A DNA stretch of 64,000 nucleotides from Escherichia coli phage vB_EcoM_Shy: sequence record MT833282.1, one strand, 5' to 3'. Positions within the stretch are counted from its first letter, which is position 1. Each line of letters begins with the position of its first letter. Under the pieces are notes generated by a model that was not told the origin of the DNA, searched no databases, and saw nothing but the letters and a program-made list of their open reading frames with translations. Positions 3,482 to 59,034 of the stretch are shown here, piece by piece. Made by a program: the position numbers and the translations under genes.

Positions 3482-3496
3482 TAAGTAATTTCTTAA

Positions 3497-3521
3497 AAGG
3501 CTGCTTCGGCGGCCTTTTTTA
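3497..3521 (+). terminator. rho-independent terminator
   Basis: hairpin AGGCTGC-TTCG-GCGGCCT followed by TTTTTT, immediately after the rIIB stop. Confidence 0.7.
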
Positions 3522-3522
3522 T

Positions 3523-3550
3523 TTGTATTTTGTGCAGAGTGCTGTATAAT
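3523..3550 (+). promoter_or_regulatory. sigma70-like promoter (TTGTAT-16-TATAAT)
   Basis: perfect -10 TATAAT at 3545-3550 about 30 nt upstream of the 3582 start; TTGTGCAG motif in the spacer. Confidence 0.55.
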
Positions 3551-5278: not shown

Positions 5279-5290
5279 GGTTAAGATACA

Positions 5291-5316
5291 GGCTCCTTCG
5301 GGAGCCTTTTTCATTT
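5291..5316 (+). terminator. rho-independent terminator
   Basis: GGCTCC-TTCG-GGAGCC hairpin followed by TTTTT. Confidence 0.7.
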
Positions 5317-5330
5317 CAGGAGATTGTTAA

Positions 5331-5678
5331 ATGACATTTAAAGAGTTCTGCCAAGCTACTTTCATAATTGTTTTCTTAGTTGGAGCAGGTGTCTGGGGAG
5401 GATACTCTTACAGAGACTACCAAGTTGCTGAAGCTGAGCTAAATAATGAGAGACTAATAAGTGTTGCCAAAGATGCTTATCAGGAAGGTTTAGCCACACT
5501 CAGCACCAATTACAAAAATGATTTGAAAGATGTGCTTGCTAAGAATAAGCACACAAAAGAGGTAATAACATATGAAAAGACTAAGCCAGAGTTTTATAAT
5601 GTTTGTGTTACTGATAATTATGTCAGGGTGTTCAACGAACAAAGTGAACAGTACATTCAAAAACTCCCAAGTAAGTGA
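5331..5678 (+). CDS. i-spanin (Rz-like) candidate
   Basis: 115-aa ORF with single N-terminal TM helix (FIIVFLVGAGVWGG) and charged helical periplasmic domain; AGGAG SD; overlapped by a lipoprotein ORF in another frame. Confidence 0.6.
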   Translation: MTFKEFCQATFIIVFLVGAGVWGGYSYRDYQVAEAELNNERLISVAKDAYQEGLATLSTNYKNDLKDVLAKNKHTKEVITYEKTKPEFYNVCVTDNYVRVFNEQSEQYIQKLPSK

Positions 5679-5841
5679 GAGTGACAAGTACACTCAAGAA
5701 GAGTCAAGATTCACTGTCAAAGGTAATACTGGCAGTGATGTGGCAGCAGCCCTTGAGTTTTATCGTGATGGTTTTTACCAGTGCACAATCAAAGCTAATA
5801 ACCTTATTGACATGATTTTATTAGGGAACAAACAGCAATGA
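5572..5841 (+). CDS. o-spanin (Rz1-like outer-membrane lipoprotein) candidate
   Basis: 89-aa ORF starting inside the i-spanin gene in a different frame; signal peptide with lipobox (IIMSGC). Confidence 0.6.
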   Translation: MKRLSQSFIMFVLLIIMSGCSTNKVNSTFKNSQVSESDKYTQEESRFTVKGNTGSDVAAALEFYRDGFYQCTIKANNLIDMILLGNKQQ

Positions 5842-6107
5842 CAGAGAACGAAGACACTTTCTATGTAGAAGGGTACTTACTGCTACCACGACCAAAAGAA
5901 ACTTATATGCGGGTTGATTTTTCACCAACCATTATGGATAACGTGATGTGCCATATCTTTATGCAAGGTGTCACAGCACAGCTTAAGCATGTTGGTAAAG
6001 AGTGCAAAATAAAGGTTGACACTCATCCAGAAATCAAAGAGAATCACTACACATGGTTCTTACCAGACTCTAAAGAAATCTTAGCAGTTCTTAAAACGAG
6101 GAAGTGA
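5838..6107 (+). CDS. hypothetical protein
   Basis: 89-aa ORF, start overlaps previous stop (ATGA). Confidence 0.45.
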   Translation: MTENEDTFYVEGYLLLPRPKETYMRVDFSPTIMDNVMCHIFMQGVTAQLKHVGKECKIKVDTHPEIKENHYTWFLPDSKEILAVLKTRK

Positions 6108-6436
6108 CTATGCAGATTAATGGAAGAGACTTTGTAGCCGTTTACTACGAGAAAGATAAAGAAGTTGGTGTAGCACAAGTATCTTATGGTAATGGTAAGT
6201 GGTTGTATGGGACAATCGCAGTAGTCGGAACAAGAAGTGATACAAAAACTTTTAAAGACTGTGTTGACCTTCTTGAAGAATCCATCCATAATCATTGGTG
6301 TCTGATATGGATGACTGACAACGAAGTGATAGAACGCTTCAAAAAGATTGGTATCAACATTGATAGCATTGAGCATGTTGACTTGTATGAGCTAACTGAG
6401 AAGGTAAACTATGAAAGTAATACTAGCCAGAGATAA
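6104..6436 (+). CDS. hypothetical protein
   Basis: 110-aa ORF translationally coupled to the upstream gene. Confidence 0.45.
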   Translation: MTMQINGRDFVAVYYEKDKEVGVAQVSYGNGKWLYGTIAVVGTRSDTKTFKDCVDLLEESIHNHWCLIWMTDNEVIERFKKIGINIDSIEHVDLYELTEKVNYESNTSQR

Positions 6437-6638
6437 AAAGACACGGAAACTTATCAGGTCAGCGGTGTTCATTGGACGAAACGAGGTCATCCCATTTACA
6501 GCAAATGATGTGATAGCTTACAGGAAGAACTTAGTATTCACTGACTGTTTACGCGGCTTCATCTCTGAACCATTAGAAGATTTCAAAAGTCGCTGTGGCG
6601 AAGGCATCATCATTCAAGAGGCAATTATTCATGGCTGA
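6411..6638 (+). CDS. hypothetical protein
   Basis: 75-aa ORF in a compact co-directional gene string. Confidence 0.4.
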   Translation: MKVILARDKKTRKLIRSAVFIGRNEVIPFTANDVIAYRKNLVFTDCLRGFISEPLEDFKSRCGEGIIIQEAIIHG

Positions 6639-6831
6639 TTTCTGCAAAGATTGTGCTATCGAAATGTTTGGACGTGATACAGGTGACTTAAAAGGTCTTA
6701 TCACTGAAGATGACTTTAAAGCTGGATATGCAATGCCAGTAATCTGTGAAGGTTGTGGATGTATCTGGGTAGACCACGAAGGACAACGTGTAAAACCTTC
6801 AGAAGATAAAGAATCTTGGGAGAGATGCTAA
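6631..6831 (+). CDS. small zinc-ribbon protein (CxxC...CxxC)
   Basis: ATG at 6631 preceded by AAGAGG SD (the track's upstream start at 6595 is GTG); motifs CKDC and CEGCGC. Confidence 0.45.
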   Translation: MADFCKDCAIEMFGRDTGDLKGLITEDDFKAGYAMPVICEGCGCIWVDHEGQRVKPSEDKESWERC

Positions 6832-7617
6832 ATGGGTATTGTAAAAATTATCAATGGGGATATCTTCTCAGCATTTGATAAAGGTAAGTTTGATATCATT
6901 GGTCACGGTTGCAACTGTATGAACTTAATGGGTGCAGGTATCGCTGACAAGATTTCTAAACTTTACCCAAAAGCATATGAGACTGATACAGAAGTTTATC
7001 TGTATGCAGGAGGTATAGGTCACAAACCCTGTGAAAATTTACTAGGCAATTTCTCTGTAGCACGTTTAGAACAAGGCCGTATAGCTAACCTTTACACTCA
7101 GCTTAAGACTGGTAAAGATGCCCGATATAGTGCTTTAGAGTCATCTTTGAAACAGCTTAACAGATACTGTGAAGTCAATCAGTTGAAGAAAGTTGGGTTA
7201 CCTATGATTGGTGCAGGTATCGGTGGACTAGACCCTCAAGCCGTCACGGTTATCATTAATCAGGTGATGAAGAGTGTAGATGTGTATCTGTATGTCTACG
7301 AAGGAGAGATGTACCACAAGTTACGCTCAGGTTGGAAGAACTACTGTGAACCAGAATACTTTGCAGGTGTAGTAGTGTTCACTGATGATGCAGTTACCCT
7401 CTTCAGACGAAGAAAAGGTAAGATACATCAAAGTAACCCTCCGGTTGAAAAGATGTCTCTAAGTAACGCTCTAGTTACCCACCTGTCGAAGAGCAATCAC
7501 AGAATTGCAGTAACATTTGGCAGTGATGCAGATACATATATCTATGCAAGAACTGATGAGGATGTTGAGGAAATTTTCTCTTCACCGGAAGTAACCTTCT
7601 TAGACGCAAAGAACTAA
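6832..7617 (+). CDS. macro-domain (ADP-ribose-binding/processing) protein
   Basis: 261-aa ORF; N-terminal DIIGHGCNCMNLMGAGIA and downstream GLPMIGAGIGGLDP resemble the two glycine-rich macro-domain motifs. Confidence 0.6.
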   Translation: MGIVKIINGDIFSAFDKGKFDIIGHGCNCMNLMGAGIADKISKLYPKAYETDTEVYLYAGGIGHKPCENLLGNFSVARLEQGRIANLYTQLKTGKDARYSALESSLKQLNRYCEVNQLKKVGLPMIGAGIGGLDPQAVTVIINQVMKSVDVYLYVYEGEMYHKLRSGWKNYCEPEYFAGVVVFTDDAVTLFRRRKGKIHQSNPPVEKMSLSNALVTHLSKSNHRIAVTFGSDADTYIYARTDEDVEEIFSSPEVTFLDAKN

Positions 7618-7682
7618 GAAACTCTGTAGAATATTCACAATAGGTTAAGCCTTTCTTATCTGGTAAATTTTTCAGGTAAGGA

Positions 7683-7890
7683 GGGCTTTTTCATTTCAGG
7701 ATTGTGCAGGTAGAGTTCTGGACAGAAATCTGTAGAGATAATTTTGAACTCCAAAGAGAAAATTCATTTTCAAACTGTGCAGGTAATCTCCAAAGAGCTT
7801 TTTCATTTTCAAAACGTGCAGACCCCGCTCAGGTCGGGCAAGAAAAATCATTTTAGAATTGTGCAGGTAGGTGGGTGCAGGTGGGGATGT
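7683..7890 (+). repeat. array of 4-5 direct repeats TTTCATTTTCA-N-TGTGCAGGTA
   Basis: copies near 7683-7712, 7761-7785, 7801-7823, 7848-7871 and 7872-7886; related TTGTGCAG at 3530 and CTTTTTCATTTCAGGA at 5306. Confidence 0.6.
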
Positions 7891-8045
7891 CGCCATTTCT
7901 CACAAGGCTACCACATCTGGAAATAAAAGTCAACAGAAAAATTTGTAGCGGATTGAAAAATAATTCTTGATTGTAGTTCTGTTTTGTGGTAGTCGCGTGC
8001 GCCCGTTTCATTACAGTTTTTGCAAAAATATTTTTAAAATTCCTA

Positions 8046-8074
8046 TTGACTCTTTGAATATGGTTATCTAATAT
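8046..8074 (+). promoter_or_regulatory. sigma70-like promoter (TTGACT-17-TAATAT)
   Basis: near-consensus hexamers with 17-nt spacer about 50 nt upstream of the 8125 ORF. Confidence 0.55.
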
Positions 8075-8124
8075 TTGCATCAGACGGGCAATCAAGCCCA
8101 CTTCCTAAACTGGAGAATCAAAAA

Positions 8125-8331
8125 ATGCTTTACAGTCGTGAATTGATGGTTACAACTAACGTTAACACAAAGGTAAAACGTTTTTATATGCAAGTGTGCG
8201 GCGCATGGCGTAGAATATCAGAAGCTGATTATTGCAACTATGTAGAAACGGCAATCAATTCTAATTGCTACCTTACGAAGAATACAAAGCGACATATAAA
8301 ACAGACAGCGGTTTACTATTACGATATATAA
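8125..8331 (+). CDS. hypothetical early protein
   Basis: 68-aa ORF, first of a string of small rightward ORFs. Confidence 0.4.
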   Translation: MLYSRELMVTTNVNTKVKRFYMQVCGAWRRISEADYCNYVETAINSNCYLTKNTKRHIKQTAVYYYDI

Positions 8332-8421
8332 AAAGTACTTTACAGGGGGCTTAAAAGCTGATATCTTAAGCCCCAGATAAAGAGCTTTACTTAATTAACC
8401 CTTAAACTAGGAGATTCAAAA
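8332..8421 (+). promoter_or_regulatory. type-A intergenic cassette (9-bp hairpin GGGGCTTAA/TTAAGCCCC at 8346-8374 plus conserved leader CCTTAAACTAGGAGATTCAAAA-ATG)
   Basis: near-identical unit recurs at 8803, 9185, 9788, 11050 and 11849; possible promoter CAGACA-17-TATATA overlaps the upstream stop. Confidence 0.55.
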
Positions 8422-8802
8422 ATGGCTTATCGTGCACCTAAATTCATCAACAAAGACAACTTTCGCAACGCACTGGAGAAGTCACTTGATGAAAATTTTA
8501 AAGGTAACATTATCGTTGTTCACGCATTCAATTTTAAGTATGATGTAAACGGGAATAGAATCAACCATTACACAGCAACCATGTTAGATGGTACGCTATC
8601 AAGTGAAAAAGCTGTACTGAATGCACTTGCAGGACGTGGTAAAAACCTGATAAGATGCGATAAGAGACGTTATCAGGGTGGCGCATATGGTTATGATGAT
8701 GCTGTTTATCATCTTGAAAATATGGGCTATTCAGTGGAAAAAGCTGGAGTGTCTCAAATAATCGGCAGTGACGGCTATGTGACAATTTTCAAAATTAACT
8801 AA
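8422..8802 (+). CDS. hypothetical early protein
   Basis: 126-aa ORF with cassette SD upstream. Confidence 0.5.
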   Translation: MAYRAPKFINKDNFRNALEKSLDENFKGNIIVVHAFNFKYDVNGNRINHYTATMLDGTLSSEKAVLNALAGRGKNLIRCDKRRYQGGAYGYDDAVYHLENMGYSVEKAGVSQIIGSDGYVTIFKIN

Positions 8803-8893
8803 TAAAGTACTTTACAGGGGGCTTATAGTTCGATAAAGTAAGCCCCAGATAAAGAGCTTTACTTAATTAACCCTTAAACTAGGAGATTCAAAA
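8803..8893 (+). promoter_or_regulatory. type-A intergenic cassette (hairpin 8817-8845)
   Basis: GGGGCTTA-13 nt-TAAGCCCC hairpin and conserved SD leader; candidate -35/-10 (TGACAA-17-TAAAGT) overlaps the upstream stop. Confidence 0.5.
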
Positions 8894-9184
8894 ATGGCTA
8901 TTATTAAAAACGTTGTAATTCCTGCAAAAACTCGTGATGACGCTCGCATCATGGCGAAAAAGTTAGGCGGGAAAGTGGTTGACAACGGAAAACAAACTGC
9001 TGTAAGGTGGAACGTGAAGGCGGATAAACAAATGAATTTAAAAAATTCACCAATAAACCTTTTTACATGTGTAAACACTATCGGGAAAACGAATGTATAC
9101 ACTAAAAAGGCATATATCAGACGCATCGCCATGACGTCACCTATTCGCACAATGAGAAGTCATGCAAAGCTGAGAATTAAGTAA
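8894..9184 (+). CDS. hypothetical early protein
   Basis: 96-aa basic ORF with cassette SD. Confidence 0.5.
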   Translation: MAIIKNVVIPAKTRDDARIMAKKLGGKVVDNGKQTAVRWNVKADKQMNLKNSPINLFTCVNTIGKTNVYTKKAYIRRIAMTSPIRTMRSHAKLRIK

Positions 9185-9274
9185 TAGAGTACTTTACAGG
9201 GGGCTTAAAAGCTGATATCTTAAGCCCCAGATAAAGAGCTTTACCACTCAATCCTTAAACTAGGAGATTCAAAA
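9185..9274 (+). promoter_or_regulatory. type-A intergenic cassette (hairpin 9199-9228)
   Basis: same hairpin and leader as 8332-8421. Confidence 0.5.
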
Positions 9275-9787
9275 ATGAAAACTGTAGACGCTACCTTTGA
9301 AGTTGTAAAAGAAAAATTTTCCATCATTTACGAAGCTGTCAATTGCTACGAAGCAAGCCATAATCTTGATAATTGGAAGTTTACAGATGACCATCAAGGC
9401 GGTGTGACTATTAAAAACCCCAACTGTCAGCGTAATGGATTTAAATATGCAATTCCTTTACATTACAGCCTTAAACAGCTTTCAATTGACTATGCAAAAC
9501 AAGGCCGGGAAAATCCATCGAAAGAGGCTTACATCAGCTTACAGAAAGAACTAGAAAGAGATTTAGAGGCTTCAGAATATAACATCGCCGCGAAAGTTGT
9601 AGATGCAAACGGTAGCACGGTTTTAGAGAGTTTTTATATTGGTTATGCTTTCGATTGGTGCTACAGTGACGGCGATGATTTAGATGACAGACTAAAAGAG
9701 GAAGTGAACAACGCAGACGCAGAATCTGAAGTATTAGAACGCTTGGAAGCATTAAAAGATTCAGTGATGAATATCTTTAAGAACTAA
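9275..9787 (+). CDS. hypothetical early protein
   Basis: 170-aa acidic ORF with cassette SD. Confidence 0.5.
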   Translation: MKTVDATFEVVKEKFSIIYEAVNCYEASHNLDNWKFTDDHQGGVTIKNPNCQRNGFKYAIPLHYSLKQLSIDYAKQGRENPSKEAYISLQKELERDLEASEYNIAAKVVDANGSTVLESFYIGYAFDWCYSDGDDLDDRLKEEVNNADAESEVLERLEALKDSVMNIFKN

Positions 9788-9878
9788 ATAGACCTCTTTA
9801 CACGGGGCTAACAAGCGGATATGATAGCCCCAGATAAAGAGATTTATCAAATTAACCCTTAAACTAGGAGATTCAAAA
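9788..9878 (+). promoter_or_regulatory. type-A intergenic cassette (hairpin GGGGCTA/TAGCCCC 9804-9831)
   Basis: stem conserved while loop sequence differs from the other copies. Confidence 0.5.
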
Positions 9879-10175
9879 ATGAAATTATCAAATAAAGTTA
9901 GGGAAAACCTTAGCAAATTACTCAACAAAATTGATTTTATAGAGACATCAAGGAATAGTCATGATGTTATGGAATGGTTACACGGCAAAATAAAAGGCCG
10001 TCGTGTAGTGATTTGCTTATGGAATAGTTGCAGGGAGTATAAAAAGCCTGTATTGCAAATTAATGTTTATGATGATACTTTTAAAAGTCCTGTAAAGTCT
10101 AAAAGCGATTTATTAGAATCCTATGAGATAACTGTAAATGGCAAAGTATCACGTAAAGAGGAAACACCATGTTAA
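9879..10175 (+). CDS. hypothetical early protein
   Basis: 98-aa ORF with cassette SD. Confidence 0.5.
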   Translation: MKLSNKVRENLSKLLNKIDFIETSRNSHDVMEWLHGKIKGRRVVICLWNSCREYKKPVLQINVYDDTFKSPVKSKSDLLESYEITVNGKVSRKEETPC

Positions 10176-10501
10176 TGACTGGTATCACTGCAATCATTGC
10201 CATTTTCGCGCTATATAAGGCATATAAAGCCTATAATCTAGCAAATAAGGCAATCACACAGCAAGTTAGCAATAACCTTGTAGAGAGCTTTCTAGGGCGT
10301 TTAAGTGATGAGCAAATAAAGCGGCTAGAGATGAGCTTCAGATATAAAGCGAAAACCTATCAGATAAGTGACATCTTCAAAGATGATTTCCAGTTAGTTG
10401 ATGATTATAATTCTCTGATAAATGCTTTAAACATCAGTGACTTGAAAGACTATCACGCTGTAATTGTTCAAGAATTGAGCAAACGAAAACAAAGTGTTTG
10501 A
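10169..10501 (+). CDS. hypothetical protein with N-terminal hydrophobic segment
   Basis: 110-aa ORF overlapping the previous gene by 7 nt; N-terminus LMTGITAIIAIFALY looks membrane-associated. Confidence 0.45.
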   Translation: MLMTGITAIIAIFALYKAYKAYNLANKAITQQVSNNLVESFLGRLSDEQIKRLEMSFRYKAKTYQISDIFKDDFQLVDDYNSLINALNISDLKDYHAVIVQELSKRKQSV

Positions 10502-12890: not shown

Positions 12891-13232
12891 ATGGCTTATG
12901 TAACCGTAATTACCGATAAAGCTGGCTCATCTTGGTCAACTCAAGTCAGTGATAAGATGTCACCTATGCAGTGCCTAAAATACTTTGAGCAATGGAACAA
13001 AGGCGAGGATGTCAGCCCCTTTCAAGTAATGCAGATTATCCATACAGATAACGAAGGGAATAAAACTGTTTTGAATAGTGAGTACTACGCAACCCGATTT
13101 GAAACGAGATGTAAAGCAATGAAGCTTTTGCGTGAGTCTGGTTATTCTCATATTGCCTCACTAATCTGGAATGACCTGCTAAAAAATCAGCGTATCAGCT
13201 ATGTAAAACCTGAAAAAATATTCATCAGTTAA
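12891..13232 (+). CDS. hypothetical early protein
   Basis: 113-aa ORF with cassette leader. Confidence 0.5.
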   Translation: MAYVTVITDKAGSSWSTQVSDKMSPMQCLKYFEQWNKGEDVSPFQVMQIIHTDNEGNKTVLNSEYYATRFETRCKAMKLLRESGYSHIASLIWNDLLKNQRISYVKPEKIFIS

Positions 13233-13264
13233 TCAATAACTTACAAAAAACTTTTTAAAAAGCA

Positions 13265-13293
13265 TTGACAATACCCCTTGACATTGGTAAATT
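13265..13293 (+). promoter_or_regulatory. orphan promoter TTGACA-17-TAAATT with no ORF immediately downstream
   Basis: consensus -35 twice (13265, 13278) and TAAATT at 13288; next start codon is 160 nt away behind a second promoter. Confidence 0.45.
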
Positions 13294-13361
13294 TGTTCGA
13301 GGGGGTTTATCTAAAAGGGATTAACTTAAAAGATTCTTTATAGATAAGCTTAAAAAATTGC

Positions 13362-13454
13362 TTGCAATCAGATATCAAAACAAGTAAATTACTAATCAAC
13401 GGGAGGTAATAACCTCCCCACTAAGTAAAGTCCTTAAACTAGGAGATTCAAAAA
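13362..13454 (+). promoter_or_regulatory. type-B intergenic cassette: promoter TTGCAA-17-TAAATT (13362-13390), hairpin GGGAGG-TAATAA-CCTCCC (13401-13418)
   Basis: hairpin stem differs from other copies by compensatory changes. Confidence 0.55.
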
Positions 13455-13985
13455 ATGAACAAGTTCAAAGCTATAAACTTCATTCGTTCAAATAGTGTTA
13501 TGTCAAAGCCTGTTAAAGACACCTATGAATTTCGTTGCAATGGGGTGCATTTTGCAACCATCACCAAATCAGAAAACGGAGCTTATTACATCCATCGCCG
13601 TAATGTTGCAACCGTTGTTGTCTCTCATTTTATGCAAGCTGTCGCGGAACTTCTCCCGATGTTTTTAGGGCTTTACTTGGATGAGTGTAAAAACGTTCAC
13701 AATCACGTTAAAAACCTTTTAAACAGCTATAAAATGGCTTATGAACGTTCTATCAAGTCATTGAACAAGTTTTACAACGCACCTGAAAACACTGTGTCAA
13801 TAGCCTATGGTGTAAGCGGTGAAATGGTAAACTTATCCAATGTGGAAGAAATCAAGCTGCATGATTTACGCCCTAACGGTTACGCTAAAACCATCGGTGA
13901 AGGTTTAACTTTCAATATCAAGAACTTAGAAAAAACTTTAAAAGATATTGAAAAAGATATTGACGAGACAATCAAAAGTCTGTAA
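13455..13985 (+). CDS. hypothetical early protein
   Basis: 176-aa ORF with cassette leader. Confidence 0.5.
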   Translation: MNKFKAINFIRSNSVMSKPVKDTYEFRCNGVHFATITKSENGAYYIHRRNVATVVVSHFMQAVAELLPMFLGLYLDECKNVHNHVKNLLNSYKMAYERSIKSLNKFYNAPENTVSIAYGVSGEMVNLSNVEEIKLHDLRPNGYAKTIGEGLTFNIKNLEKTLKDIEKDIDETIKSL

Positions 13986-14051
13986 ATTGTCAATCAACGG
14001 GGAGGGAATGACCTTCCCCACTAAGTAAAGTCCTAAACTGGAGTTATCAAG
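13960..14051 (+). promoter_or_regulatory. type-B intergenic cassette: promoter TTGACG-17-TAAATT (13960-13988), hairpin 13999-14019
   Basis: -10 overlaps the stop codon of the upstream gene. Confidence 0.55.
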
Positions 14052-14315
14052 ATGGAAAACGTCGAACTGACCACACTTTTACAAATTGCAACCGACAAAG
14101 AGGATGTAGCATTATTCCACCGTATCGAAAGTGATTTGTTCAATGGTGAAATCATTAAAGAATCTTACGAAGTGGTCGGATTCAAAGATGGTAAATCATT
14201 TGGATTCTTTGACCTCGACAAAGGCAACGCTATTACAAAGTATGATGTTTTATCTTGTGAGATTCTGACAAAATACAACGAAAAAAGACTTGCAACATAC
14301 GCCAACATGCAGTAA
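14052..14315 (+). CDS. hypothetical early protein
   Basis: 87-aa ORF with SD GGAG. Confidence 0.45.
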   Translation: MENVELTTLLQIATDKEDVALFHRIESDLFNGEIIKESYEVVGFKDGKSFGFFDLDKGNAITKYDVLSCEILTKYNEKRLATYANMQ

Positions 14316-14380
14316 ATTACTAATCAACGGGAGGGATGACCTCCCTACTAAATAAAGTCCTTAAACTAGGAGATTCTAAA
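14290..14380 (+). promoter_or_regulatory. type-B intergenic cassette: promoter TTGCAA-17-TAAATT (14290-14318), hairpin GGGAGG/CCTCCC (14329-14346)
   Basis: same architecture as the other type-B copies. Confidence 0.55.
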
Positions 14381-14629
14381 ATGGCAACTATCCGCGCAAT
14401 TGTAAATTCTTATGGCTGCTACACTCTGGACGTTAAATTTGATATAGGTGGGACCGATGAGTGTTTCGAACTGGTGAAAACAGTCATTAAACAAGTTATC
14501 CCAGACTATAACCCTACTGATGACTTCTGGAAAGATGCAGTAAAAGAGGCGTTGAACGATGAATATCATTACCATTATTGGGGTGATTTGATTGTCTCCC
14601 TGTACTACAATAAACAAGGTTGCAACTAA
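14381..14629 (+). CDS. hypothetical early protein
   Basis: start re-assigned to the ATG after the conserved leader; the track ORF 14336-14629 starts inside the leader. Confidence 0.5.
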   Translation: MATIRAIVNSYGCYTLDVKFDIGGTDECFELVKTVIKQVIPDYNPTDDFWKDAVKEALNDEYHYHYWGDLIVSLYYNKQGCN

Positions 14630-14667
14630 TCGGCGCAACGGGGCTAAATAGCCCCAGATACCTTTAC

Positions 14668-14715
14668 AGCCCCTTTATATTGATTCGATAGAATCTATCT
14701 CATAGGGGCTTTTTT
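14668..14715 (+). terminator. rho-independent terminator closing the rightward early block
   Basis: long hairpin AGCCCCT...AGGGGCT enclosing palindrome GATAGAATCTATC, followed by TTTTTT. Confidence 0.6.
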
Positions 14716-16304
14716 ACGTCTTATCGAATACCTGTACAACCCTTTCCCTTTCCTTTCCAGAATCTATCCCACTGATTCGATAGTGATTCAGGTAATGAAT
14801 TACCTTCATAGAATCTATCTCATACCTTAAAAGCAATAACTCTATAGCTTACTCTATAGCCCCTTATCAAATCAACTTAAATATAAGCCCATAACCCGAA
14901 AGGGAAGGGCAACCATTTAAACGCTCTATAAAGCCCTATAACAGCCTTATCAACCTAACTTAAGGGATTGCATTACCTCACCCTTAAAATCCCTTTATAA
15001 AGCTTCCCAGAGCCTTAAAAGAATCTTATAAGGGTGTAAGCTTTATTATCTCGTTAGCTATCTTGTGAATGGTTAAACAACCCCTTGATAGTAACTGAAA
15101 AGTATGTTATAGGGGCTATAAAGTTACTTTGAAGTAGTTTAAAAGTTACTTAAAAGTTACGTAAATGCTAGCCCCCTTAACATTTTCTTAACAATTTCTT
15201 AACAAACCCTACATAGTTATGCTCTTAAGGCACTTGTTAGCAACTTGTTAGCCCCTTGTTAAATCTCTGTTAAAACCACGTAAAAGCCTTGTAAGAGTCT
15301 TTGGCATAGCCTTGAAAGCTTCTGTAAAGCCCTATAAATAGCTTTCTGTATAGTTGGGGTGTAATTACTAGAAAGAGACTAAAAAGAGCTTATAAGGAGC
15401 TATAAAGGGCTTTTAAGAGGGCTATTTAAAGAGTCACTAAGAGGGAAAGGGAACGATAAGAAAAGAGATAGTGACCATGTTAATAGCTTGTTAAAAAGAT
15501 TAAACACTTGTTAGGAACTTGTTAATTATCTTAACAAAATAACTCTTTAAAATTAACTTGTTAGCTCTTGTTAGTCATCTGTTAAGACTCTGTAAAGACT
15601 ATGCAGCAACTGTTAAGAAACTGTTAAGTTCTTGTTAGTTCTGTTAAGAATCTGTTAAGACCTCTGAAGAGATGTTAAGAAGATGTAGTAACTGTTAAGA
15701 GATTGTTAAGGATATTTTAAAATTCTGCAAAGGGGATGTTACAGGGATGTTAAGGGCTACCAAGCAGATATACATCTTCTACAGATATTTTTGAGTTCCT
15801 TCAAAGACCCTAAAAAATGACTTGATAGTCCTATTTTATAAAAATTTTAAAATTCTGAATAATTACCTATACAGTCTTTTAAAAATACAGGCATAAACAG
15901 GCTTATAAGATACCTTGTTAGTACCGTGTTAGACCTTGTGAGATAAGGTCTGTAAAGATATTCCTGTTAAGTTTGTTAAAACAGTCTATATAGAGGCTTA
16001 GTAATACCTAGTGAACACCTATAGAGGGTAACATAGCTGACATAGAGATTAAGGGGTGTATAGGAGCTTCTAAGAGGCTATAGAGAGATGGTTAAGGTGA
16101 TTGTATAGGTTGTTAAGAATGCTTGTTAGAAGAGTGTTTAGAAGGGCTATACAGAGGGGCTATTAAGACCACTAGATAGATACTAAGATACTATATAGTA
16201 CTATATAACTATATAGAGAGTAAGCTTAAGAAGGTTGTTAAGAAGGTTAGATATTTTATTCACATATGATGGTGACCCAGAGGTTGGGACAACCGATAAA
16301 ATTT
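14716..16304. repeat. 1.6-kb ORF-free repeat-dense region between convergent transcription units
   Basis: no ORF of 60 aa or more in any frame per the supplied track; several families of short repeats (CTATAAAG, AAAGTTAC, CTATATA, TTAAGAGGG, GGGCTA..TAGCCC palindromes). Confidence 0.7.
15186..15755. repeat. dense array of more than 20 short direct repeats with core TGTTA(A/G) (CTTGTTAG / CTGTTAAGA)
   Basis: e.g. ACTTGTTAGCAACTTGTTAGCCCCTTGTTAAATCTCTGTTAAAA and AACTGTTAAGAAACTGTTAAGTTCTTGTTAGTTCTGTTAAGAATCTGTTAAGA; spacing about 8-12 bp. Confidence 0.7.
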
Positions 16305-16335
16305 TATAAAAATTAAAAAGCCCCCAATTAAGGAG
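16305..16335 (-). terminator. putative terminator for the leftward block
   Basis: minus-strand hairpin CCTCC-TTAATT-GGGGG followed by CTTTTT, just downstream of the minus-strand gene ending at 16350. Confidence 0.4.
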
Positions 16336-16349
16336 GCTCTTAAGATATT

Positions 16350-16943
16350 TTAAATCAGTGTTTCCAGAACTGTCTTCAGTGATGACTTGGTTGTCTGATA
16401 AAAATGAGTGAATCCATTGTTGTTATCGAATACCTGCATCATGATATCATCTCCCTTGATTGGGTACACTCGGATATCATAGTGAAAACCATTAAAGACA
16501 CAAGAACCATTACAGAATGCACTAAAGTCATTCACTGAGATGTACTCTTCATGCCCTGTGATTTTTATACAGACACCTTTACTCGGTCTCTTAGGGTTGA
16601 TATCTTCCATCACAGACATATTCTGTCCACCAAGAGACACCATAGTGACCACTTTACGGTTCTTCTGTCTGAAGTACATCTTAACTTTCTGCAAAGTGTC
16701 TTCATAGAACGGATAAGACTTCTCTACAAAGATTCCTTCAAGTGGCTCTTTACCATTTTCAACTTCTCTGTTATGCCGTACTGCAAAGATAATTTGTTCA
16801 AACCAGTCAAGATTTTCTTCGGATAGTGCTTCTCGAATATCATTCCAGTCAAGGACTAGGTAGTTGCCTTCAACTTCTTTTAAGTTATCTTTTTCCATAT
16901 CTATCACACCATTATCGTAAAACTTGGTAATCTGGTACTGCAA
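16350..16943 (-). CDS. hypothetical protein
   Basis: 197-aa ORF; no confident motif. Confidence 0.5.
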   Translation of the reverse strand: MQYQITKFYDNGVIDMEKDNLKEVEGNYLVLDWNDIREALSEENLDWFEQIIFAVRHNREVENGKEPLEGIFVEKSYPFYEDTLQKVKMYFRQKNRKVVTMVSLGGQNMSVMEDINPKRPSKGVCIKITGHEEYISVNDFSAFCNGSCVFNGFHYDIRVYPIKGDDIMMQVFDNNNGFTHFYQTTKSSLKTVLETLI

Positions 16944-17376
16944 ACTTGTTGTTGTTGTTCTTAATGAGGTCTTCTTCTGTTACTAAAAATGTAAGACCAC
17001 ACAAGTGTGTATATCTGCTATCATACTCAAATATTTTAAGTAAGTATTTACCATCGTGATAAACAGATTCTACTACACCTTTTGCAACAATCTTTCCAGT
17101 CTTGAAATCTTTAAGAGGGTATACATTACCAACTTTAGGAACTGTTTTCATCTCAGGTTCTTTTAGCTTCTCACCAGCTTCTACATCACCTAGTAAGTGA
17201 GAACTATCAAAAGCTACATGTTGCATATAAGCTTCTGAGCATTCCCAGATAAAGCAACTTACAAGAACCTTAGCAGCATGTCTTGAACAATTCAGCTTAT
17301 CACAAATCTCTTTGTACATTTCATCTTTAGTTGAGTTGTCAAGCATTGCTTTTTGGACTACTTCTTTAATTTTCAT
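16912..17376 (-). CDS. hypothetical protein
   Basis: 154-aa ORF in the leftward gene string. Confidence 0.5.
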   Translation of the reverse strand: MKIKEVVQKAMLDNSTKDEMYKEICDKLNCSRHAAKVLVSCFIWECSEAYMQHVAFDSSHLLGDVEAGEKLKEPEMKTVPKVGNVYPLKDFKTGKIVAKGVVESVYHDGKYLLKIFEYDSRYTHLCGLTFLVTEEDLIKNNNNKFAVPDYQVLR

Positions 17377-17794
17377 AAGCTCTCCGAATAACCATATTAA
17401 GCATCTCTAAAGTCAGCTTTCCAGATTCTAAATGTGGCACAATAAGTTTTAAAGCTTTTTCAACATCATGCACAACATCTATTATACCTTCTGCATAGGC
17501 TTCTACAAGGATATCTTTTACATTTTGTGATTTACCTTTTTGTGGTATCACTAGACGCATATCAAACTCATTTGCTTGGGGATGGTTCTTACCTTGCCAA
17601 TAACCATCTTTGTTAAAGCTGATGTAGTCACCGTGGTAAAAGTGTACACCATTAGCTTTAAACTTCTCCAGCACAAGGCATTGAATTGGGTATTCAGTAT
17701 TCCACTCCCTGACTCCTATAACCTTCACTGTTGCGATGTACTCCTGTGTTTTTGCATCTATGATGTCAAGTTCTTGACCAACTATGATTTGCAT
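17366..17794 (-). CDS. hypothetical protein
   Basis: 142-aa ORF. Confidence 0.5.
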   Translation of the reverse strand: MQIIVGQELDIIDAKTQEYIATVKVIGVREWNTEYPIQCLVLEKFKANGVHFYHGDYISFNKDGYWQGKNHPQANEFDMRLVIPQKGKSQNVKDILVEAYAEGIIDVVHDVEKALKLIVPHLESGKLTLEMLNMVIRRAYEN

Positions 17795-17848
17795 ATTCGC
17801 TACCTTCTAAGTTTCTACAAAGGGGCTATCAAGTAACCCCTCAAGTTA

Positions 17849-18073
17849 CTACTCAGGCTTTTCAGTCTTCTTATCGGATTTCTTACTAGTCTTCTTCTCA
17901 GCTTTCTGCTCAGGTTCCTTCTCAGAAGTTGCCTTGATAACCATGTCAAGAAGCTCTGATAGGTCACTCTTCAGCAGAGTAACAGGCTGCTCATTGTAGA
18001 AGTTTTTGTCAAGATAAACTTTGAACTCTTCTATAGATGGAAATCCAAAAATTGGTACAGGTGTCTTAATCAT
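17849..18073 (-). CDS. hypothetical small protein with Lys/Glu-rich C-terminal tail
   Basis: 74-aa ORF. Confidence 0.4.
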   Translation of the reverse strand: MIKTPVPIFGFPSIEEFKVYLDKNFYNEQPVTLLKSDLSELLDMVIKATSEKEPEQKAEKKTSKKSDKKTEKPE

Positions 18074-18149
18074 TACTTAGTTTCTCCATAGGCATCTTTT
18101 AAGATTGCCTTGTTAATCATTTCAGCGATTGCAAAACGAACACATACAG

Positions 18150-18683
18150 CTATAATTGTAGGTTGCATTCTTTACTTACCTCTTCAAGTTTAACCTCAGA
18201 GTCCTTAAGTCGTTTCTTATGAACTCTGAATCTCATTAGTGCGATGATGATACCAACTAAAGGAACAGCATACAAGTACCAAACATCATATACCTTTGTA
18301 GTAATCTGTGTAATGGTCAAATCTTGAGCTATGGAACTGATTGCTGATACTGCCAGTAATGTTGCTAAGAAAAATGCCAGTACCATTACTGTACTTAAAC
18401 AACCTCTGGCATGGTGTTCATGCTTAATACACTTATTCTTTTCGTCAACGACCCTGTTGTAGTCATTTGTAAAGTCTCTGTAGAAAGCTTTCAAGTATTC
18501 TTTATTGTAGCCTTCAAAGCAACCTGTACCGTACCAATAATCACCACCAAAATGTGCTATGATACCAGTATCTCCGTTTGGTTTAGTTACTCTCAAAGAA
18601 GTATGATGACGAGTATCTTGATAGTCTATTTTGTATCTTTCTTCGTAAATCATTTTCCAATCCCTCTCAATCGTTTGTTCCAC
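18150..18683 (-). CDS. membrane protein (two predicted TM helices in C-terminal half)
   Basis: 177-aa ORF; hydrophobic segments VMVLAFFLATLLAVSAISSIA and LYAVPLVGIIIALM. Confidence 0.5.
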   Translation of the reverse strand: MEQTIERDWKMIYEERYKIDYQDTRHHTSLRVTKPNGDTGIIAHFGGDYWYGTGCFEGYNKEYLKAFYRDFTNDYNRVVDEKNKCIKHEHHARGCLSTVMVLAFFLATLLAVSAISSIAQDLTITQITTKVYDVWYLYAVPLVGIIIALMRFRVHKKRLKDSEVKLEEVSKECNLQL

Positions 18684-18868
18684 TCAAGGTCAACAAGTCT
18701 TTGTAGGACTTTCCCTCTAGGTGTTACACCTTTTAAATCTGCATCGTAGCAATGGTAAAAGTCACCTTCAGCATGTTTACCGCAACATTTTCTGATGTTC
18801 TGACTTCTACGATACTGCTCTAATAGGGATAGTCTGTAGTAATCTTCAACTGTAGTTAACTTTTTCAT
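18650..18868 (-). CDS. hypothetical small protein
   Basis: 72-aa ORF overlapping neighbours at both ends. Confidence 0.35.
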   Translation of the reverse strand: MKKLTTVEDYYRLSLLEQYRRSQNIRKCCGKHAEGDFYHCYDADLKGVTPRGKVLQRLVDLEWNKRLRGIGK

Positions 18869-19410
18869 TCTTTCACCATAGCATTTCTGAACTGACGTTG
18901 AGTTTCTCTTGTAATTTCATCTGGAGTAAACCCTGCTTTCAGCATATCCCTGAAAAGAACTTCTAAGTGATTCTTTTCAATAATGTAAATTGCATTCTGC
19001 ACAGATGTTTTAAGTTCCTTCAGGTCACTGCTAATTTCTTCGCACTTGTTGACAATATCTGTATCAACTTTCTTAAAGACTGGCATGGTATATCTACGAC
19101 CACCATTAGCAGCATCCATGAAAAATTTAAAAGATTCCTCAGAGTCCTTTAAAGCAATCCCGATAAAGTTCTTGTAAGCACCTGTGAAAGCTAAAGACTC
19201 AATCTCAGCAGTTGAGTATACAGTTCCTGCACACAGTCTTGCGGAGGTACTAAATGTGTGGTTTGGTGTTATGTCAAAGTCTAAGTTCTTCAGTGGTCGA
19301 AAATAAACTGTGCCAGTATGTGAGACATGTGTTACAACAGCCTCCACACTCTTTGAAGGGTTCTGTTTAACATACAAAATAATTTTATCGTGTTCTTTCA
19401 CTTTAGGCAT
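18865..19410 (-). CDS. hypothetical protein
   Basis: 181-aa ORF. Confidence 0.5.
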   Translation of the reverse strand: MPKVKEHDKIILYVKQNPSKSVEAVVTHVSHTGTVYFRPLKNLDFDITPNHTFSTSARLCAGTVYSTAEIESLAFTGAYKNFIGIALKDSEESFKFFMDAANGGRRYTMPVFKKVDTDIVNKCEEISSDLKELKTSVQNAIYIIEKNHLEVLFRDMLKAGFTPDEITRETQRQFRNAMVKE

Positions 19411-19482
19411 ATCTATTCTCCAGAAACTAAAAAGGGAACTACCTCTCGATAGCTCCCATCATAGTTAATATTGTATATTCGG

Positions 19483-20064
19483 TCAAGAGTATTTTTTAGG
19501 CAGTAATGCGCTACGCTTGTTACTCTCTTCACTCAATAGTGCGATAAATTCATCACCTTTCCCTTTCCACGGACTGAATGTAGGGATGTGCTCTCTGATA
19601 GCCTCAATCACTGTTTTCAGGGCATTGTTCTTTAACCACCAATCAGACACTGCCGAAGCTACGATGTAGTAAGCACCATCATCTGTGAAGATTGGCTCAG
19701 AGATACATGGTGAAATCATAGTGGTAATGATAGAGCCATTATTCATGTAGTATGTTCTTTTTTCAACCTTGTCAAGCAGTTTATGAAGGTCTGCAAAGAG
19801 ACTTACCACCTCTTTATGGTCAATATCTTTTTCAAGATTTGCCCTGTATTTCAATAGTGCAGCATCAACCTCTTTATCATTGAATTTGAAGTATTGGACT
19901 TCTTCATTCACACATACACTGATATTGTTGGTGTTTATCGTCAATTTGCACAGTTTGACTGGAGAGTTGATGTTGGTCTGGAAAAGTGCTACACAGCCTT
20001 CTACATTTCCGAAATGTTTTACTAGTGTAACTTCTGGTTGAATGTGCTCATGCTCTTCTGACAT
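19483..20064 (-). CDS. hypothetical protein
   Basis: 193-aa ORF. Confidence 0.5.
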   Translation of the reverse strand: MSEEHEHIQPEVTLVKHFGNVEGCVALFQTNINSPVKLCKLTINTNNISVCVNEEVQYFKFNDKEVDAALLKYRANLEKDIDHKEVVSLFADLHKLLDKVEKRTYYMNNGSIITTMISPCISEPIFTDDGAYYIVASAVSDWWLKNNALKTVIEAIREHIPTFSPWKGKGDEFIALLSEESNKRSALLPKKYS

Positions 20065-58704: not shown

Positions 58705-59034
58705 TTAATCTGCCAACCTTAAATTAAAATTAACACCAAATTTTTCACATACTTCCAACATAAACTCGAGAGAGACATTACCAGTGAGGTTGATTATGTT
58801 GGATACACGAGCCTGAGAGATACCACAAATTTTAGCAACTTGCTCTTGAGAAAGACCTCTGGATTTAATCTCTCTCTTAAAACGATGTGCAACGAAATCT
58901 CTCATTTCGTCTACATCCATTGGACAAATATAACTCTCCATTTCAGCTTCTCTGTCAGCCTCCCAATCATCTTGTGGAGCATAAGGGTCAAAAACCTCAT
59001 TCATCTTTCTTCTTCCGTTTACGTGAAGTGTCAA
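58705..59034 (-). CDS. HTH (XRE-like) DNA-binding protein
   Basis: C-terminal helix-turn-helix-like segment LSQEQVAKICGISQARVSNII. Confidence 0.55.
   Translation of the reverse strand: MTLHVNGRRKMNEVFDPYAPQDDWEADREAEMESYICPMDVDEMRDFVAHRFKREIKSRGLSQEQVAKICGISQARVSNIINLTGNVSLEFMLEVCEKFGVNFNLRLAD

Follow-up and report, generated by a model that had tools for sequence, protein, structure and literature searches.

What does a cluster of short direct repeats do in the gap between two blocks of genes in a Felix O1-like phage? The stretch analyzed here, which we call the window, is 64,000 nucleotides of Escherichia coli phage vB_EcoM_Shy (record MT833282.1), a Felix O1-like myovirus (Ounavirinae, Felixounavirus), and the repeats sit in its gene-free gap at 7618-8124 (507 nt). 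From the letters alone, an original prediction had seen at 7683-7890 a periodic array of direct repeats in four to five copies, with related single copies at 3530 and 5306, and had offered two explanations, namely binding sites for a regulator or a set of tandem non-canonical promoters. We found four full, co-oriented copies of a two-word motif in the gap and a fifth, solitary site at 3519-3536, and the motif occurs at only these loci in the genome. The explanation that best accounts for the whole is that the four copies are co-oriented duplex sites for one protein that would act at the boundaries between transcription units, and we put its probability at roughly 0.42.

The repeat unit and its conservation

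A repeat search returned a four-copy family at 7682, 7755, 7794 and 7839, with spacings of 73, 39 and 45. Written after comparing relatives, the unit is a tract of A4-5 or T4, the word T(C/T)ATTT, seven variable bases and the word GTGCA, usually then GGTA. The two invariant words differ from each other, are non-palindromic and stand a fixed 7 nt apart. All four copies are on the plus strand. Copy 1 (7687-7712) reads TTTT-TCATTT-CAGGATT-GTGCA-GGTA, with its words at 7691-7696 and 7704-7708 (conservation 0.986 and 1.0), and copy 2 (7759-7785) reads AAAAT-TCATTT-TCAAACT-GTGCA-GGTA, with words at 7764-7769 and 7777-7781. Copy 3 (7799-7821; TTTT-TCATTT-TCAAAAC-GTGCA-G, words at 7803-7808 and 7816-7820) is without the GGTA extension and its next 6 nt are only 0.645 conserved, and copy 4 (7843-7869) reads AAAAA-TCATTT-TAGAATT-GTGCA-GGTA, with words at 7848-7853 and 7861-7865. 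Copies 1 and 3 are thus flanked by T4, copies 2 and 4 by A4-5, and the choice of homopolymer changes between genera.

The copies stand out clearly from the rest of the DNA. With a position weight matrix (PWM) built from relatives they score 37-45 bits (44.9, 39.0, 38.9 and 37.4 for copies 1 to 4), while the next best site in the window reaches 14 bits, which is the shuffle level. The pattern TCATTTYMR-N4-GTGCAG matches with zero mismatches only at 7691, 7764, 7803 and 7848 in 64 kb, all other matches having 2-3 mismatches. The strict pattern T[CT]ATTT-N7-GTGCA has five matches in 64 kb, all on the plus strand, which are the four array copies and the site at 3519; across 300 block-shuffles it had no match in 266, one in 33 and two in a single shuffle (mean about 0.12). 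The same five strict sites are present in the complete 87-kb genome of UAB_Phi87, and at 15 bits or more the PWM places the motif nowhere else in that genome. Taken together, the PWM scores of the sites run from 36 to 47 bits. The predicted count of four to five copies therefore holds for four, since the fifth, at 7875, is only the octamer GTGCAGGT (7875-7882), which lacks TCATTT and is lineage-specific. Likewise the repeats are real and co-oriented, but the array is not strictly tandem or periodic: the spacers are unequal in length and Tandem Repeats Finder (TRF) makes no call on it. A surplus of GTGCAGGT outside the array (7 sites) was considered and turned out to be Gly-Ala-Gly codons within genes and not motif copies.

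The original prediction had suggested a motif search across related phages, and this search finds the repeats conserved. At the level of the region, 7000-8600 is 99.5% identical to Escherichia phage SME50 and matches 248 phage records, and the gap itself aligns in 288 phage records, of which the most distant (Erwinia phage phiEa21-4 and its kin) align only over query positions 146-248, the array core. Four copies are found in Moogle (spacing 75/41/45) and in SUSP2 (73/39/45) and three in Si3. The Kolesnikvirus phiEa21-4, in which blastn still aligns copy 4, has four copies of the form TTTTTCATTTTcAAtTTGTGCATAG with spacing 37/37/39. Order and orientation of the copies are kept in Felixounavirus, Suspvirus and Mooglevirus (spacing 73-77, 39-41 and 43-45) as well as in Kolesnikvirus, although the 3' extension is GGTA in Felixounavirus and TAG in Kolesnikvirus, and no opposite-strand site was found among the relatives' loci. 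The motif reaches further still in an 88-kb IMG/VR contig (3300045988_063805, here L066). This contig has no blastn similarity to the window at E <= 1e-3 and its syntenic proteins are 46-56% identical in matched blocks, yet the order of kinase, macro gene, array and early genes is maintained and the array has five motif copies (AAAWTCATTTTAAAAACGTGCATAGG).

Across 23 distinct aligned sequences from three genera, conservation is 98.6-100% in TCATTT and 99-100% in GTGCA, against 83-90% in the 7-nt linker, 82% at third codon positions of the macro gene and 67.5% in the tract that follows the array. The adjoining early genes are less conserved than this non-coding array. Outside the phages, two-copy pattern matches in bacterial genomes (54) and JGI metagenomes (43) gave no locus with at least two PWM-passing sites, which marks those matches as chance occurrences in other repeats. 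As judged from these alignments, the array is under strong purifying selection on its primary sequence. A further conserved element, family D2 of the repeat search, is the box CTCCAAAGAG, which lies on the plus strand in nearly invariant columns upstream of copy 2 (7749-7758) and again upstream of copy 3 (7788-7797), and which is also present in Moogle and SUSP2.

Candidate binding sites at transcription-unit boundaries

The array is quite probably a group of sites at which a single sequence-specific protein binds duplex DNA. As TCATTT and GTGCA are 7 nt apart, the distance between their centres is about one helical turn, and a protein could reach both words through two successive major grooves. 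The exchange of A-tract for T-tract is equivalent in a duplex, where it would keep a narrow minor groove, but not in RNA, which makes recognition of double-stranded DNA the simplest interpretation. The spacing between copies is unequal and unphased and drifts by 2 nt between genera, which argues for independently bound sites over a rigid phased complex. We infer protein binding, recognition of the double-stranded form and a role in transcription. The regulator-site part of the original prediction is thus the one that we favour, given the invariant halves at a fixed 7 nt, the free linker, the copy number and orientation kept across genera and the restriction to one locus per genome.

The solitary site bears on what such a protein could do. 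A rIIB terminator hairpin (3495-3518, plus strand) is directly followed by the site, TTATTT-GTATTTT-GTGCA (3519-3536, plus strand), which ends 8 nt 5' of a TATAAT (3545-3550). This hexamer is perfect but is without a canonical -35, and the motif spans about -38 to -21. This arrangement of terminator, motif, 8 nt and TATAAT without a -35 is kept in Mooglevirus and Felixounavirus, the linker being different in Mooglevirus. The TATAAT heads an operon for an SLT-like protein, polynucleotide kinase, the spanins and the macro-domain protein, and the promoter, P3545, is a candidate for factor dependence. The copy that had been placed at 3530 is therefore a full site, conserved in place in both genera. 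Its supposed counterpart at 5306 is not, as only a TCATTT half-site (5311-5316, plus strand) is found there, in a terminator tail (5290-5307) that runs into the ribosome binding site of the gene at 5331.

The three strongest plus-strand intrinsic terminators of the first 8 kb (3495-3524, 5290-5316 and 7647-7696) share the tail TTTT-T(C/T)ATTT, and good terminators on the opposite strand are without it. The TCATTT half may double as a terminator tail or may have arisen from one.

A role at transcription-unit boundaries is a more tentative proposal, to which we give somewhat less than even odds. Upstream of the gap lies a co-oriented block of rIIA, rIIB, polynucleotide kinase, spanins and a macro-domain 'phosphatase' (6832-7617), and this block ends in an intrinsic terminator hairpin at 7647-7688 (plus strand, 17 pairs, loop 8, tail TTTCATTTCA), whose T-tail passes straight into copy 1; the wV8 and ASO1B records annotate a terminator at the same position. 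Downstream come about 16 small genes of unknown function, from 8125 to about 14,630, many with a sigma-70-like promoter ahead of them. In the mechanism that we propose, a phage- or host-encoded protein would act at the junctions between such units. At 3519 it would occupy the -35 place of P3545, after the rIIB terminator, and serve the promoter as an operator or as an activator box. The cluster of four sites would serve where the rII-to-macro block meets the early module, insulating or modulating this junction, be it as a roadblock, as a regulatory sink or as a nucleation site. Four things favour this role: the sites are placed next to terminators, the solitary site has a defined geometry relative to its promoter, the copies are spaced without helical phase, and the array is dispensable in phage Bas63. 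Clusters of regulator sites such as lambda OL/OR, those of phi29 p4 and the T4 MotA box at -30 likewise have short words at a fixed internal spacing, one site that replaces the -35 before a perfect -10, and a clustered position between two transcription units. They differ in that our array overlaps no recognizable promoter, that one promoter per genome carries the motif, and that its sites are direct and asymmetric and not palindromic.

The dispensability comes from the PhageMaP screen of Bas63, in which barcodes are inserted at Cas9 cut sites (doi 10.1101/2024.10.10.617714). The array region of Bas63 is 97.3% identical to the window, and its 'gene 96' (bas63_0096) is a spurious minus-strand open reading frame (ORF) that corresponds to 7696-7851, over the four copies. 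This 'gene 96' scored +0.24 to +0.98 in all conditions retrieved and resembles its non-essential neighbours, where essential genes score much lower (DNA polymerase about -1.3, ligase about -2; doi 10.1101/2024.10.10.617714). The tolerated insertions indicate that an uninterrupted array is dispensable for lytic growth in laboratory hosts, and this fits a modulatory element.

Several points weigh against our explanation. Each Bas63 score is a composite for a whole gene, and a barcode that landed between sites would leave the four of them intact. Pfam and PHROGs searches of 16 early-string and 9 upstream-operon proteins returned no DNA-binding, Rep or initiator family, although a novel-fold initiator or binder among these proteins is possible. 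The sole recognizable regulator in the window is an XRE-type helix-turn-helix protein on the minus strand (58705-59034), a class that usually binds palindromes. Between the cluster and the nearest strong promoter downstream there are 175-360 nt, a long distance if the promoter is to be controlled directly, and in Kolesnikvirus the solitary promoter site was not found in the 5.8 kb examined. The literature offered nothing usable on Felixounavirus transcriptomes or transcription-start maps. We had also considered a self-regulated binder encoded right after the solitary site, and rejected it because that gene gives only a weak SLT-transglycosylase match.

Genome ends and alternative explanations

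Where the array lies with respect to the genome ends matters for some of the alternatives. UAB_Phi87 has an experimentally determined terminal repeat of 608 bp and Bal31-sensitive SpeI fragments of 4322 and 2819 bp (PMC4837284). On the circular SpeI map of this phage the end fragments fit only the 6568-bp fragment at 13014-19582, which does not contain the array, and the ECP2307 record has identical ends of about 592 bp that map to 15,171-15,761. The map and this terminal repeat together rule out the array as a genome terminus, pac or cos site. The idea had some appeal, as the SpeI site at 19582 plus 2819 bp falls exactly on the stop codon of the macro gene, but the full map overruled it. By these comparisons the physical ends and the terminal repeat are at 15,171-15,761, inside a 1.6-kb gene-free repeat field (14,700-16,300) at the far end of the early-gene string, where TGTTAA/TGTTAG units recur dozens of times, frequently at a period of 11 nt, along with words of the CTATAGAG type. 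Measured from one end, the array therefore lies 7.9-8.1 kb inward, or about 9% of the genome; the mapped end and the array enclose the whole early-gene string, whose genes are transcribed toward that end. In L066 (reverse complement, about 5360-5800) the motif copies are directly followed by A+T-rich TTAACA repeats of period 11, of the kind that fills the terminal repeat field here, so that the two repeat types flank the early module in our phage and adjoin in that contig.

Some records show other apparent ends. Four IMG/VR contigs (L023, L024, L025 and L031; three of about 89 kb and one of 51.6 kb) stop 300-415 bp past the macro gene, in or shortly past the hypervariable tract that follows the array; these ends are most likely assembly-graph breaks between co-occurring strains and not biological ends. 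In the UAB_Phi87 record (JN225449.1) the first 542 bp equal the last 542 bp, in the tRNA region. This duplication is an assembly overlap and not the published 608-bp terminal repeat, and 87,603 - 542 + 608 gives 87,669, the published genome size. The published end fragments total 35 bp less than predicted from the record.

We consider it unlikely that the repeats are iterons of a replication origin, bound by a phage initiator or by host DnaA so as to open the adjacent A+T-rich DNA by the early promoters, with the 3519 site being autoregulatory. The array does share with known iterons (the O-binding repeats of the lambda origin, P1 oriR/incA, F and R6K) a single locus with four to five asymmetric sites of about 20 bp in one orientation, A+T-rich DNA and strong promoters beyond them, and an extra site within a promoter that recalls Rep autoregulation in iteron plasmids, and its GTGCA half is DnaA-box-like in L066 and in all four copies of Kolesnikvirus (8/9). 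Its spacing, however, is long and irregular (37-77 nt), out of helical phase and shifted by 2 nt between genera, unlike that of phased iterons; GC skew is unchanged at the array; neighbouring genes include no recognized Rep-like or initiator family, the first gene of the P3545 operon having only its weak SLT-transglycosylase match; and Bas63 tolerates insertions within the array. Loss of one origin is tolerated by phages that can start replication in several or redundant ways, T4 among them, and for this reason the Bas63 result is compatible with an origin as well. An improbable relative of this idea is that the copies are host-factor sites, for DnaA or another protein, at the inner border of the DNA that enters first, where they would mark or pause entry or titrate the factor, by analogy with the repeat-rich injection-stop region that delimits the first-step-transfer DNA of T5. 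We give slightly less weight again to its fuller form, argued by analogy, in which the array would be the inner boundary of a terminal early module of about 8 kb and a DnaA-like stop or pause for stepwise entry, or a means to titrate a host replication protein; this would imply a T5-like two-step infection in a myovirus subfamily unrelated to T5, arrived at from a different repeat. As for position, the array is about 9% inside the mapped end with the whole early string in between, and the T5 injection-stop region is at 7.9% (doi 10.1101/866236). As in T5 'repeat region 3' (the iss region, with its DRD repeats and DnaA boxes), a conserved non-coding cluster borders the earliest module some 8-9% from the end and outconserves the neighbouring early genes, and the nine DRD repeats of T5 (TGTGCAAATCCGACA; direct repeat D, AY587007.1 9672-10409, or L140 3723-4460) have in common with the array a TGTGCA core, co-orientation and irregular spacing. 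By eye, the first 9 bases of the DRD reverse complement (ATTTGCACA) match the DnaA consensus at 8/9, which the available part of the T5 paper does not mention. There is no homology to the T5 region beyond that hexamer, and that region lies within and just beyond a 10-kb terminal repeat and has inverted repeats, palindromes and paired, tandem, near-consensus DnaA boxes 3 bp apart, which the array does not resemble. The PWM finds no site of at least 8 bits in the T5 record at 5950-10500, and a repeat search of the array found no large inverted repeats comparable to those of T5. The resemblance to DnaA-box clusters (oriC, datA, DARS) is likewise partial. In Kolesnikvirus the reverse complement of the GTGCA half is CTATGCACA, which matches the DnaA box TTWTNCACA at 8/9 in four copies (background 0.12%), and matches of 6-8/9 occur in L066, where one copy alters only the degenerate fifth position (CTATCCACG). 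In Felixounavirus, SUSP2 and Moogle the match drops to 5-7/9, with only the TGCAC core left in Felixounavirus, Suspvirus and Mooglevirus, and 6.6% of random 9-mers reach 6 or more; the TCATTT half, which is just as conserved, has no DnaA counterpart, and a spacing of about 40 nt contrasts with close-packed DnaA arrays. It also counts against an entry border that the early genes run toward the end, opposite to T5, that two-step entry was not found reported for these phages, that the Bas63 insertions are tolerated, that no such array occurs in bacterial genomes, and that the PHROG matches of the early proteins are all to families of unknown function with none labelled A1 or A2, a result that rests on these labels and not on direct comparison with the T5 A1/A2 proteins.

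The other part of the original prediction, tandem non-canonical promoters, which would here serve a phage-modified RNA polymerase with the motif as activator box, has little probability for the array. It draws on the solitary site, where a perfect TATAAT has the motif in place of its -35, at a distance that two genera share, much as the MotA box is placed in T4 middle promoters, and on a TAnnnT that follows the motif in copies 1 and 2 (TAGAGT and TAATCT). Yet a sigma-70 scan of 7400-8400 places promoters only at 8046 and 8339 and none in 7683-7890; no -10-like element stands at a fixed distance from the array copies; copies 3 and 4 are without a -10-like hexamer; the TAnnnT of copies 1 and 2 sits 6 nt nearer the motif than the TATAAT at 3545 does; and the Kolesnikvirus extension (TAG...) yields no -10. 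A promoter class cannot be built on a motif that is missing elsewhere in the 87-kb genome, and only the 3519 site sits in a promoter. Sigma-E, sigma-54 and sigma-32 promoters were considered as well and rejected, the tool scan being negative, a sigma-E-like GAACTC...TCAAA noticed by eye has a spacing of 18 rather than 16 and is not conserved, and a promoter-like TATAGAG after copies 1 and 4 in relatives has no genome-wide enrichment. The consensus sequences of host factors (IHF, Fis, CRP, OmpR, the MarA/SoxS/Rob marbox and NtrC) appear to resemble the motif only in part, none of them convincingly. Lower still we place an element that works as RNA, whether a small RNA, a protein-sponge RNA or a termination or antitermination signal in the transcript. 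Every site is co-oriented with transcription, and the U-tails of intrinsic terminators hold the start of copy 1, of the solitary site and of the 5311 half-site. But the array has no surplus fold stability on either strand (z-scores +1.10 and -0.10), the alifold consensus of -4.7 kcal/mol comes with an unfavourable covariation term of +1.24, Rfam gave no relevant match to the array even at E <= 10, the A-tract and T-tract interchange upstream of the core, and with a strong terminator before the array and no promoter inside it little RNA is expected. Hardly any weight is left for small protein-coding genes or for a local duplication whose remains are neutral. The array does contain ORFs of 50-66 aa, which are annotated in the records of SME50, wV8, Bas63, Moogle and UAB_Phi87, but their strand and frame shift between genera, GenBank records disagree on the strand, the array length varies modulo 3 (175, 173, 179, 131, 204), and no reading frame is conserved among genera, which led us to reject a coding array. 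The remark in the original prediction that 60-aa ORFs here merely translate the repeats agrees with all of this. Conservation in two short words per copy with free linker and spacers is the opposite of a codon-like or a neutral pattern, and the motif is kept in L066 although no blastn similarity to the window is left.

Neighbouring features and significance

Downstream of copy 4 the gap has further features, all on the plus strand. A hypervariable tract (7872-7925, conservation 0.675) is G-rich in this lineage and holds the GTGCAGGT octamer, and most relatives have a C-rich tract (CCCCTCTCCCCCTCTTACTCCCC) in its place. The C-rich, G-poor tract of relatives is about 45 nt long (L005 1210-1260, L006 1265-1310, L007 1085-1125, L004 1650-1680, plus strand); the run is Rho-utilisation-like and forms a G-quadruplex-type run on the opposite strand. 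The conservation string then shows a second nearly invariant non-coding block at 7929-7971 (AAAAGTCAA.AGAAAAATTTGTAG.G.A.TGAAAAATAATTCTTGA), which is found also in Moogle, SUSP2 and Si3 and is partly recognizable in phiEa21-4 (GTCAAGCGATTTTTT). This block could bind a further protein or could form the upstream portion of a weak promoter (TTGATT-17-TAGTCG). The Bas63 'gene 97' spans it and the screen holds no data for this gene, for which the reason could be that there was no guide RNA or no viable insertion. The first sigma-70-type promoter of the early string (8046-8074, TTGACT-17-TAATAT) follows about 175 nt 3' of copy 4, and a corresponding promoter is annotated in the ASO1B record.

Some observations concern the records that match this region. 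Many relatives (JH2, mio, P54, OPT-SAL01 and others) match 7000-8600 in two pieces over about 2.24 kb instead of 1.6 kb, which indicates an insertion of about 640 bp in those relatives, outside the 7618-8124 gap, which itself matches without a break; an additional small gene or an insert of the homing-endonuclease type is the probable explanation. The region is also carried at 88% and 96.5% identity by GU169904.1 (Staphylococcus phage SA1) and MG065664.1 (Campylobacter phage A132), respectively, and these two records look like contamination or mislabelling.

We found no description of the array in the literature. The Felix O1 genome paper states that the temporal regulation of transcription is not known and lists other direct repeats (PMC3185647). 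The wV8 record annotates nine repeat classes, none of which is the array, its 'DR_6' being the promoter-region repeat at about 8100. What is new is the motif itself, its conservation across the subfamily and its position, and what is familiar is the general kind of element, direct-repeat protein sites clustered in the control region of a phage.

For annotation, the small ORFs called over the array in many GenBank records are spurious, and the physical genome ends can be placed 7.5 kb from the array, in a separate repeat field. Felix O1-like phages are widely used in Salmonella typing, biocontrol and therapy. Of the non-coding sequences that we found where the rII-to-macro block meets the early host-takeover genes, the array is the most strongly conserved, and its Bas63 version is easy to manipulate. 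Identifying the protein that binds it would give a first handle on regulation in this subfamily, or else on the choice of origin or the entry of the DNA.

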